Made by a program: the position numbers and the translations under genes. Shown here piece after piece: positions 11,972 through 13,602 of a DNA stretch of 64,000 nucleotides (its first letter is position 1; every line of letters starts with the position of its first letter). The notes under the pieces were generated by a model. The model saw only the letters and a list, made by a program, of their open reading frames with translations, was not told where the DNA came from and did not search any database. The DNA lies in assembly GCF_048403405.1 (NCBI RefSeq), contig NZ_CP183129.1; one strand, given 5' to 3'. This stretch comes from Escherichia coli (lineage in GTDB: Bacteria; Pseudomonadota; Gammaproteobacteria; Enterobacterales; Enterobacteriaceae).

Positions 11972-12238
11972 TTACTCTGCAGGTGAAGTCGGCCACTCAA
12001 TATCAGGTGCAGTTGATGTATCAACACGATTCAACAATACCCGATATTTATTCCATGCCTCCAGCAACGATCTTTCTTCCGCCGTTGCGATTTCCAGATC
12101 TACAGCATCCTGCAGTGGCGCAATATACTCACTGAATTCCTGGATGTGGAACTGTGTGGTGACGGTCTTCCAGTCATTCGGCTCCTGCTGTATCGAAGCA
12201 TACCAGGCTATTTCAATATCGCTATGCTGCGGCAGCAT
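11972..12238 (-). pseudogene. tail fiber assembly protein, C-terminal fragment (duplicate of tfa 3' end)
   Basis: 88-aa ORF closely similar to the C-terminus of the Tfa at 13018-13602 ([45 protein letters not shown]). Confidence 0.5.
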
Positions 12239-12294
12239 TTAACCCCTTGTAATTCATCGCCATAATTGATTTAATTCACAAATAAAACTATAAC

Positions 12295-12963
12295 ATGGTG
12301 AAATCAATGAAAAAAAACACAGATGATGGGGCTAAAATTTACACACCACTTACCCTAAAGCTTTATGACTGGTGGGTTTTGGGAGTATCAAATCGGCTTG
12401 CATGGGGATGTCCTACAAAGGAACACCTTCTTCCACACTTTCTGGAACATGTAGGTAACAACCATCTGGATATTGGTGTTGGAACTGGGTTTTACCTTAC
12501 TCACGTACCTGAGAGTAGTCTGATATCTTTAATGGATTTGAACGAAGCTAGCCTGAACGCGGCATCTACAAGGGCTGGGGAATCAAAAATTAAACATAAA
12601 ATTAGCCATGATGTTTTTGAACCTTATCCCGCGGCGTTACATGGTCAATTTGATTCCATTTCCATGTTTTACCTTCTTCACTGCCTGCCTGGAAATATAT
12701 CTACAAAAAGCTGTGTAATACGCAATGCGGCGCAGGCCTTAACTGACGATGGAACTCTATACGGAGCCACAATTCTTGGCGATGGAGTTGTGCACAATAG
12801 CTTCGGTCAAAAACTGATGCGCATTTACAATCAGAAAGGCATCTTTTCAAACACAAAAGATTCCGAAGAAGGCTTAACACATATACTCTCAGAGCATTTC
12901 GAGAATGTTAAAACCAAGGTTCAAGGTACTGTAGTAATGTTTTCCGCTTCAGGGAAAAAATAG
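12295..12963 (+). CDS. class I SAM-dependent methyltransferase-like protein (moron between tfa copies)
   Basis: 222-aa ORF with SAM-binding motif I (LDIGVGTGFY); AT-rich; arrangement resembles the methyltransferase-like ORF between tfa genes in DLP12 (recalled, unverified). Confidence 0.6.
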   Translation: MVKSMKKNTDDGAKIYTPLTLKLYDWWVLGVSNRLAWGCPTKEHLLPHFLEHVGNNHLDIGVGTGFYLTHVPESSLISLMDLNEASLNAASTRAGESKIKHKISHDVFEPYPAALHGQFDSISMFYLLHCLPGNISTKSCVIRNAAQALTDDGTLYGATILGDGVVHNSFGQKLMRIYNQKGIFSNTKDSEEGLTHILSEHFENVKTKVQGTVVMFSASGKK

Positions 12964-13017
12964 CATCCAACCGCAGCACGTTCTTGCTTAAGACGTGCTG
13001 CGGCATAATCCCAATGA

Positions 13018-13602
13018 TTACTCCCTGACAGGGTTCGTAGGCCACTCAATATCAGGTGCAGTTGATGTATCAACACGGTTCAGCAACACCCGATACTTTT
13101 TCCAGGCTTCCAGCAATGAGGTTTCTTCCTCCGTTGCAATTTCCAGATCTGCAGCATCCTGAAGCGGCGCAATATGCTCACTGGCTACCTGCATCAGGTT
13201 GTTTTTTGTTTCTTCCGCCTCCCGGATCCGGAACAGTTTTTCTGCTTCCGTATCCTTCACCCAGGCTGTGCCGTTCCACTTCTGAAACTCCCCTTCCGGC
13301 GATAACCAGGTAACATTTTCCGGTAACGGACCGAGTTCAGAAATAAATAACTCGTCCCCTGACGCTACGTCATAAACCGTTTTCCCCCGATGGTCTTCAA
13401 CGAGATGCCACGATGCCTCATCACTGTTGAAAACAGCCACAAAGCCAGCAGGAATATCTGGTGGTGCAATATCGGTACTGTTTGCTGGCAGACCTGTATG
13501 AGGCGGAATATATGCGTCACCTTCACCAATAAATTCATTAGTTCCGGCCAGCAGATTATAAATTTTTATGGTCCGTGCTTGTTCACTCATTCTGAATGCC
13601 AT
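13018..13602 (-). CDS. tfa: tail fiber assembly protein Tfa
   Basis: 194-aa ORF immediately downstream of stf with conserved Tfa C-terminal region. Confidence 0.8.

Follow-up and report, generated by a model that had tools for sequence, protein, structure and literature searches.

A methyltransferase gene bracketed by tail fibre assembly sequences in an Escherichia coli lambda-like prophage: a probable mobile cassette with a predicted small-molecule or lipid head-group enzyme

We analysed a 64,000-nt stretch of the Escherichia coli chromosome (contig NZ_CP183129.1, assembly GCF_048403405.1; hereafter the window), in which the genes pepT, potA and potB are followed by a lambda-like prophage; the identical locus is annotated in strain 7/2. 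At the extreme right end of this prophage, the position of the lambda b region, lie three open reading frames (ORFs): the tail fibre assembly gene tfa (13018-13602, minus strand), a gene for a class I S-adenosylmethionine (SAM)-dependent methyltransferase (MTase; 12295-12963, plus strand, annotated with 222 aa) and an 88-codon ORF, here called tfa' (11972-12238, minus strand). An earlier interpretation of this DNA, made from its sequence alone (the sequence-only reading), had placed the same three ORFs here, with tfa and tfa' bracketing the MTase gene, and this holds. As a whole, the arrangement is best explained, with reasonable probability, by a cargo slot at the right end of the prophage that holds a mobile MTase cassette and a chimeric tfa', spreads through tfa homology and encodes a small-molecule or lipid head-group MTase.

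The two tfa copies differ in completeness. The tfa gene directly follows stf, its upstream partner, and its 194-aa product matches PF02413 (Caudo_TAP) in full length (profile positions 1-130 of 131, E 1.9e-44); like lambda Tfa (orf-194), it is a full-length member of the family, and the gene is annotated as intact in strain 7/2. In tfa', the PF02413 match is confined to profile positions 75-131, covered by ORF residues 31-87, so that compared with lambda Tfa the N-terminal 74 profile positions are missing, while residues 27-86 have 77% identity with the C-terminus of lambda Tfa. Lambda, unlike the prophage in the window, carries no MTase gene downstream of its tfa. The copies share a direct repeat of 158 nt with 87% identity, the left arm at 11988-12145 in the tfa 3' end of tfa' and the right arm at 13037-13194 inside the intact gene. 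At the protein level 46 of 55 C-terminal residues are identical (E 3e-30). This likeness is far above chance, and 'similar' describes it better than the 'near-identical' of the sequence-only reading, which was an overstatement.

Only part of tfa' derives from tfa. Positions ~11972-12145 correspond to the tfa 3' end (~174 nt, the last ~58 codons), and ~12152-12238 to the 5' end (the first ~29 codons) of a gene of the family phrog_3893; the tfa homology begins after the phrog_3893 stretch, across a short CCAGGAA-like overlap. In Citrobacter the same ~29 codons open an intact 80-aa ORF, a full-length member of phrog_3893 (E 7.6e-38). By its composition, then, the tfa' frame is a phrog_3893 N-terminus fused to a Tfa C-terminus, and the left arm of the repeat reads as the product of an illegitimate fusion rather than of simple duplication. 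The description as a tfa C-terminal fragment is correct for the ~174 nt and fails for the first ~29 codons. In PHROGs, the 88-aa ORF matches phrog_2341 over its full length (E 2e-60), the MTase matches phrog_2132 (E 4e-157, full length) and phrog_3893 is represented by a 79-aa ORF; none of the three families has an assigned function, and the phrog_3893::tfa fusion origin of phrog_2341 is absent from the family description.

The fused frame is uninterrupted in the window, keeps the conserved C-terminal 57 residues of Tfa and has a PHROG of its own, and in some related phages a DNA invertase lies near the slot. We therefore weighed whether tfa' could be a functional short chaperone or an alternative specificity element of the tail fibre, the duplication serving host-range variation. 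This is very improbable. The frame is broken by stops, frameshift or 3' truncation in five of the six loci read, the window being the intact one, and four different kinds of lesion are found among the five: K-12 has a stop at codon 62, phage Kati has stops at codons 33 and 62, phages ev243 and PhiR26_1 have replaced 3' ends, and strain EC-129 has a frameshift at codon 12. PGAP labels tfa' as a pseudogene in all seven annotated genomes examined. With the N-terminal 74 profile positions of PF02413 lacking and unrelated phrog_3893 sequence in their place, with a partial domain and a frame that is not conserved, the ORF falls outside the Tfa family, and we regard it as a chimeric pseudogene remnant. 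Furthermore, both tfa copies are direct, with no inverted repeats present; a remnant of an invertible tail fibre segment of the Mu G or e14 P type was rejected on the same grounds.

We next consider the limits of the cassette. Citrobacter freundii encodes the closest relative of the MTase outside E. coli (90% protein identity), and its loci L019 and L020, in which no tfa homology was found, are 91.6% identical to the window over 825 nt, from 12152 to 12975. The homology shows that the cassette begins 143 nt before the annotated MTase start; the opposite strand of this stretch encodes the first ~29 codons of tfa'. The mobile cassette (12152-12975, plus strand) thus comprises a truncated phrog_3893 5' end in antisense, a predicted divergent promoter region and the MTase ORF, and the phrog_3893 gene is the native divergent neighbour of the MTase gene in the Citrobacter locus. 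In L019 the 80-aa phrog_3893 gene is followed by a truncated S24/UmuD-like ORF, the pair lying at 4307-4941 (minus strand), and dinI lies on the other side (5745-5996, plus strand). HK225 likewise has SOS-associated neighbours, as do Erwinia phages, whose phrog_3893 gene carries the annotation 'DNA polymerase V'.

Genes of phrog_3893 are ordinary occupants of the same slot in HK97- and lambda-like phages. In HK225, tfa (gp26), dinI (gp27) in the opposite orientation, gp28 (phrog_3893) in the orientation of tfa, an invertase gene and attP follow one another, a layout like that of the window. HK225 differs in carrying dinI, not a MTase gene, as its cargo and in having an intact gp28, without fusion to a tfa fragment. 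Phage Ayreon retains both junctions of the module while most of the MTase gene is gone: what is left comprises a tfa 3' fragment, the hairpin found between tfa and MTase, a few codons from the end of the MTase gene, the spacer upstream of that gene and a degraded 5' end of phrog_3893 (L006, 4009-4350). Ayreon represents a naturally occurring deletion of the module in a phage able to form plaques. A second cargo block follows the MTase gene on the same strand in further E. coli prophages, one of them in O157:H7 (L026, 4088-7474; L030, 2557-5772; L033, 2557-5771). The products of this block are a general stress protein similar to yciG, two ferritin-like proteins of the YciE/YciF type and a manganese catalase, which makes the slot between tfa and att a hotspot for multi-gene cargo.

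Comparison of the window with K-12 and with phages PhiR26_1, ev243 and Kati gave identities of 96-100% over ~12050-13000. On the left side, identity falls inside tfa' in all four. On the right side, PhiR26_1 shows no fall, Kati shows one past the hairpin and ev243 one inside the 3' end of tfa. Population-wide, the break points lie at 11991-12014 on the left and at 12967-13040 on the right; homology with most other carriers starts at ~11991-12014, and on the right ~2,530 genomes continue into tfa. In different prophages tfa homology marks the recombination boundaries of the module, and this supports exchange through tfa.

These observations suggest the following course of events. The ancestral phage would have carried tfa, the MTase gene and the phrog_3893 gene in this order, the MTase gene pointing towards tfa and away from the phrog_3893 gene, as dinI does in HK225. 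An illegitimate join at the short CCAGGAA-like microhomology would then have linked the phrog_3893 gene with a tfa 3' end from a different phage arm. Thereafter the cassette would be bracketed by tfa homology, and homologous recombination in the tfa segments could move it among lambdoid prophages. Recombination within these segments would account for a core that is 98-100% identical and lies in variable flanks at several chromosomal sites. The sequence-only reading had proposed cargo insertion by recombination between tfa copies; of this, the bounding of the module by tfa homology stands, and the left copy is a chimeric pseudogene rather than a duplicate made by insertion.

The module is highly prevalent in E. 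coli: of 5,426 complete E. coli genomes, 3,837 (~70%) carry segment 12239-13017 with an identity of at least 95%, in up to 4 copies per genome. Among phage records, the MTase segment was found in 14, including Lambda_ev243, 2G7b, the PhiR phages, Kati and Turner, and was not found in lambda. The module lies in potB, at the DLP12/ompT-appY locus, at the yciEFG-ompW locus and beside IS66. The sequence-only reading did not recognise that K-12 carries the arrangement too: its DLP12 prophage is annotated with a tail fiber assembly pseudogene, a frameshifted class I MTase gene and a tail fiber assembly fragment, followed by appY and ompT. We take these three genes to be tfaD, ybcY and tfaX of the K-12 map. 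A divergent pair ybcY/tfaX is listed for K-12 (PMC3946193), in agreement with this naming.

Gene order and orientation in K-12 are the same as in the window, and the MTase DNA is 98.8% identical. DLP12 has the same chimeric tfa', hairpin and tfa 3' end, with 96-100% identity across ~12050-13450. All three K-12 genes are pseudogenes, however: tfaD is truncated at its 5' end, ybcY has lost 2 nt, which destroys the ATG at M5, and tfaX has the stop at codon 62. In the window, by contrast, tfa and the MTase gene are intact, and the prophage is complete and lies in potB rather than at the DLP12 site. The arrangement is therefore a known one, a long-annotated module of the DLP12 type. No functional study of ybcY, tfaX or DLP12 methyltransferases was found in the literature searched, and the neglect of the MTase is probably due to its K-12 copy being a pseudogene. 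Our analysis adds the limits of the cassette, the chimeric origin and decay of the tfaX-like ORF, evidence for purifying selection on the MTase gene, a conserved candidate promoter region and evidence against a DNA methyltransferase role.

The MTase gene (orthologue of K-12 ybcY) behaves differently from tfa'. Of the 11 loci read, K-12 alone has a broken copy, and the other 10 have an intact one. Comparison with orthologues of 65-90% protein identity gave ratios of nonsynonymous to synonymous substitution rates (dN/dS) of 0.21 for Citrobacter, 0.17 for a Salmonella plasmid, 0.11 for a Salmonella islet, 0.12 for Enterobacter and 0.11 for Klebsiella. By these values, the MTase gene is held under purifying selection while tfa' decays differently in different prophages. 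The true start is probably the ATG at 12307, giving 218 aa, because orthologues begin at M5 and a conserved GGTGA precedes it.

The gene is AT-rich, as the sequence-only reading had noted. GC content is 41.1% (36% at third codon positions), and 27% in the 56-nt upstream spacer, compared with 48% in tfa, 52% in stf and 51% in potAB. Presence at this position varies as well: lambda and the tfaQ and tfaR contexts lack the MTase gene, Ayreon has deleted it and HK225 has dinI instead. It resembles the lambdoid morons (lambda bor and lom; HK97 and HK022) as an extra gene of atypical GC content, with a candidate promoter region and a flanking hairpin, that lies between conserved phage functions and is missing at the same position in related phages. 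The view of the gene as moron-type cargo is borne out by its foreign base composition and by its place at the very right-hand tip of this lambda-like prophage, and it would be a host-benefit moron rather than a phage replication gene.

Relatives of the MTase are stand-alone genes on chromosomes, on plasmids and in islets flanked by insertion sequences (IS). Orthologues often adjoin IS elements or sit on plasmids, and are chromosomal singletons in Salmonella and Enterobacter. No conserved operon partners were found: in Salmonella, Enterobacter, Yersinia, Aeromonas, Klebsiella and Citrobacter the orthologues are monocistronic and lie in unrelated contexts.

We examined the regulatory signals around the gene. 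A consensus scan and conservation across genera mark 12239-12294 (plus strand, 27% GC) as the predicted promoter and 5' leader region. The candidate promoter consists of TTGTAA (12247-12252) as -35 element, a 17-nt spacer and TGaTTTAAT (12267-12275), an extended -10 element; alternatively, TTGATT (12266-12271) may pair with TATAAC (12289-12294). A Shine-Dalgarno sequence, GGTGA, lies at 12297-12301. About 60 nt upstream of the MTase gene are conserved in orthologues from Citrobacter, Salmonella, Enterobacter and Klebsiella, down to 65% protein identity; the conserved block contains CTTGtaAT, the 17-nt spacer, TTGATTTAATTCAC, AACTATAAC and aGGTGAaatcaATG. In K-12, genomic SELEX (systematic evolution of ligands by exponential enrichment) lists a site for the RpoD holoenzyme with an H-NS entry in the ybcY/tfaX spacer, and Shimada et al. 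read the promoter as TTGATT-17-TATAAC (PMC3946193). Together, these signals suggest that the MTase would be transcribed from its own predicted sigma-70 promoter and probably silenced by H-NS. Read-through from potAB may add to expression at the potB site; the MTase gene is co-oriented with potAB, and hairpin and consensus scans revealed no convincing terminator between them. SOS regulation, suggested by dinI and the umuD-like neighbours in Citrobacter, was rejected, as 12239-12294 contains no LexA box (CTGT-N8-ACAG).

Between the convergent MTase and tfa genes lies a strong hairpin (12971-13003), with a folding energy of -23.6 kcal/mol on the plus strand (z = -5.3) and of -28.6 kcal/mol on the minus strand, where it is followed by UAUUUUUU. 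A U-run is present in the direction of tfa only, and the T-run is complementary to the final codons of the MTase gene. Since the homology with Citrobacter stops at 12975, we assign the hairpin to the tfa side, and it is likely the terminator of tfa and the late operon. A 45-codon ORF (12908-13045, minus strand) runs across the hairpin and takes in the 3' end of the MTase gene and the stop codon of tfa; it is listed in RefSeq as a 'hypothetical protein' (WP_001309429.1), is labelled 'nucleocapsid protein' in K-12 and is probably a spurious call.

The fold of the MTase is clear. The protein passes the Pfam gathering scores of Methyltransf_12 (37.5 bits against 30), _23, _25 and _11. Motif I, LDIGVGTG, lies at residues 58-65, within the LDIGVGTGFY (58-67) on which the sequence-only reading had based its assignment, and none of G61, G63 and G65 varies among 38 homologues. 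D81 does not vary either, and D106 is conserved in at least 90% of homologues; hhalign aligns them with D85 and D110 of the Plasmodium phosphoethanolamine N-methyltransferase PfPMT, whose sequence was verified against the structure 3UJ6. D81 is the acidic residue at the end of strand 2 (ribose contact) and D106 that of motif III (adenine contact), as in class I enzymes. The AlphaFold2 model has a predicted local distance difference test (pLDDT) value of 90.8, a predicted template modelling score (pTM) of 0.87, a seven-stranded class I sheet and an N-terminal helical lid, so that the SAM-binding fold, the absence of which would have spoken against a methyltransferase, is present. A fold search gave 1,398 PDB matches at E<=1e-3, the best 50 of which are nearly all methyltransferases, and a search of viral folds in BFVD returned generic MTases only.

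The protein belongs to a large, discrete wider family, which comprises 418 clusters (at 50% identity) at E<=1e-30 and 1,124 at E<=1e-10, and the source names of the cluster members are all generic. The best PDB relatives by sequence are juvenile-hormone acid methyltransferase and UbiG. Among 40 wider-family members, weak NCBIfam neighbours are BioC (22 of 40), UbiE (14 of 40), CpaM and NodS. The family extends well beyond Enterobacterales and includes long members with unannotated N-terminal extensions (P0181, P0188, P0216 and P0272), which are probably eukaryotic; no Pfam domain was found in the N-terminal extensions of remote relatives, except in one eukaryotic fusion with RCC1 repeats. YmfD of e14 was rejected as a paralogue (BLASTP E 15, hhalign probability 10%).

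As a class, we consider it quite probable that the MTase is a self-sufficient small-molecule or lipid head-group methyltransferase; it would be cytoplasmic and act on such a substrate rather than on DNA. The sequence-only reading had left a DNA and a small-molecule methyltransferase side by side. Orphan DNA methyltransferases are frequent in phages, where they could give the phage or the lysogen epigenetic or anti-restriction protection, and PADLOC gave a marginal match to mad2, a methylation-associated defence model (E 0.009, 12.9 bits). However, the protein has no motif IV of the form (D/N/S)PP(Y/F/W), no PCQ or ENV and not a single PP dipeptide; strand 4 is followed by FYLLHCLPG. It has no target-recognition domain, matches no DNA methyltransferase family of Pfam and has no DNA methyltransferase among its top structural neighbours, and its orthologues are chromosomal singletons of a housekeeping type. 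Of all the readings weighed here, the DNA methyltransferase is the least credible, and only the small-molecule side of the earlier proposal, which the fold fits, survives. A component of anti-phage defence was dismissed likewise, as PADLOC yielded nothing significant beyond the mad2 match.

The MTase gene stands alone and, in the manner of resistance genes, recurs beside IS elements and on plasmids. The enzyme might therefore methylate RNA (rRNA or tRNA) or protein, as mobile cargo of the resistance type or modifying translation. We regard this as unlikely. The pI is neutral (6.9), the 218 aa leave no extra RNA-binding domain, and models of RNA or protein methyltransferases gave weak matches in 1-2 of the 40 family members, as against 22 for BioC and 14 for UbiE; moreover, the orthologues in Salmonella and Enterobacter are conserved chromosomal genes.

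Within the small-molecule or lipid class, the list of closest structures is flat, with a phosphatidylethanolamine (PE) N-methyltransferase (PmtA, 8YS9) and a phosphoethanolamine N-methyltransferase (3UJ6) at its head. The modelled structure gives weak hints of an amine or phospho-amine acceptor. PmtA (207 aa) is similar in size to the MTase, and both PmtA and PfPMT have an N-terminal helical lid with a conserved Tyr and a His after strand 4, to which residues of the MTase may correspond; identity is only 15-20%. The MTase lid is rich in invariant Tyr and Trp, as is the head-group pocket described for PmtA (PMC11446283). hhalign places the invariant H129 on the catalytic His132 of PfPMT and TDxGxKVY16 on TDEGVKVY27, that is Y16 on Tyr27. 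The positions of the invariant Y16, Y24 and H129 are thus comparable to those of the Tyr and His residues of PmtA and PfPMT, a tentative equivalence drawn from the PfPMT alignment with a probability of only 44%.

An amine N-methyltransferase could act on a head group of the phosphoethanolamine type, converting PE to its monomethyl (MMPE) and dimethyl (DMPE) derivatives and to phosphatidylcholine (PC), or on a soluble amine, so that the membrane or metabolite pool of the lysogen would be altered. To our knowledge, methylated PE or PC is not a recognised lipid of E. coli, though most strains carry the MTase, and this counts against such a substrate. Besides the low hhalign probability, DhpI, CmoA, a sterol C-methyltransferase and others score almost the same as the head of the structural list. 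The NCBIfam model for Legionella PmtA (NF045882) gave 15.7 bits, far below its cut-off of 390, with the SAM-binding core alone aligned, and for remote members the weak NCBIfam matches are to BioC and UbiE rather than to PmtA. This reading of the substrate is unlikely, slightly more so than RNA or protein. More speculative still is the wider picture of an amine or phospho-amine N-methyltransferase, acting on the PE head group, a polyamine or an ethanolamine metabolite, with which lambdoid prophages remodel the membrane or metabolite pool of their hosts. If true, it would amount to a widespread lysogenic conversion, overlooked because the model strain K-12 has a dead copy.

Several points weigh against the account of a mobile, tfa-borne MTase cassette of benefit to the host. 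We infer the order of events, the illegitimate join first and the homologous spread later, from present-day sequences, and the phage collection yielded no member that unites tfa, the MTase gene and an intact phrog_3893 gene. On the MTase strand no U-run follows the hairpin, and a terminator of the MTase gene itself was not seen there. The literature searched holds no expression, product or phenotype data for any intact allele. Finally, the MTase is dispensable in the laboratory, since the K-12 copy is dead and the gene has been deleted from phage Ayreon.

The MTase is of interest as a gene that is conserved, is held under purifying selection, is mobile across Enterobacterales and beyond, is present in ~70% of complete E. 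coli genomes and is broken in K-12; knowledge of its substrate would close a gap in the picture of what hosts gain from lambdoid prophages. As a phrog_3893::tfa fusion, tfaX would in turn be a small example of how an illegitimate join can create portable homology that later drives modular exchange among phages.

The setting of the prophage is as follows. The 14-nt att core TGAATAAGAAGGTG lies at 11709-11722, inside the potB 3' end, with a second copy at 60163-60176, and is the only exact repeat of at least 14 nt from the potB end found elsewhere in the window. From the two cores we deduce a prophage of ~48.4 kb, spanning ~11723-60176. The integrase gene lies at 58900-60018 and potC starts at 60185. 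The potABCD operon is split by the prophage, with potAB on the left (9757-11740) and potCD on the right (60163-62022) of the att cores, and the last five codons of potB (SELDD) are supplied by the phage. Strain 7/2 has the same junction between potB and prophage, and a left flank of the potB type is common to ~820 complete E. coli genomes. The spacer from the potB stop to the tfa' stop (11741-11971) is specific to the prophage type that integrates in potB and contains a hairpin at 11906-11935.

Upstream of tfa, stf (13602-16628, minus strand) encodes the side tail fibre protein of 1008 aa, with matches to PF08400, PF21446 and PF07484. Its middle (15200-16300) is a long low-complexity region rich in Ala, Ser and Thr, with a GC content of ~0.6 and an AT skew of down to -0.4, and gives rise to many long spurious ORFs in the other frames. 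A full-length Rfam match to RF02111 ('IS009') at 13061-13259 (minus strand, 225.2 bits) lies wholly within the tfa coding sequence, and a weaker one at 12012-12215 (minus strand, 108.8 bits, below the gathering score of 117) lies in tfa'. We rejected it as a separate RNA feature because the model coincides with the coding sequence; this 'sRNA' family appears to have been modelled on tfa, and RF02111 matches in prophages may not be RNA genes. Elsewhere in the prophage, Rfam matches above the gathering score are STnc100 (42283-42472, minus strand), sok antitoxin RNA (46114-46285, minus strand), DicF (54578-54629, plus strand), IsrK (54864-54940, plus strand) and C4 antisense RNA (54965-55052, plus strand).

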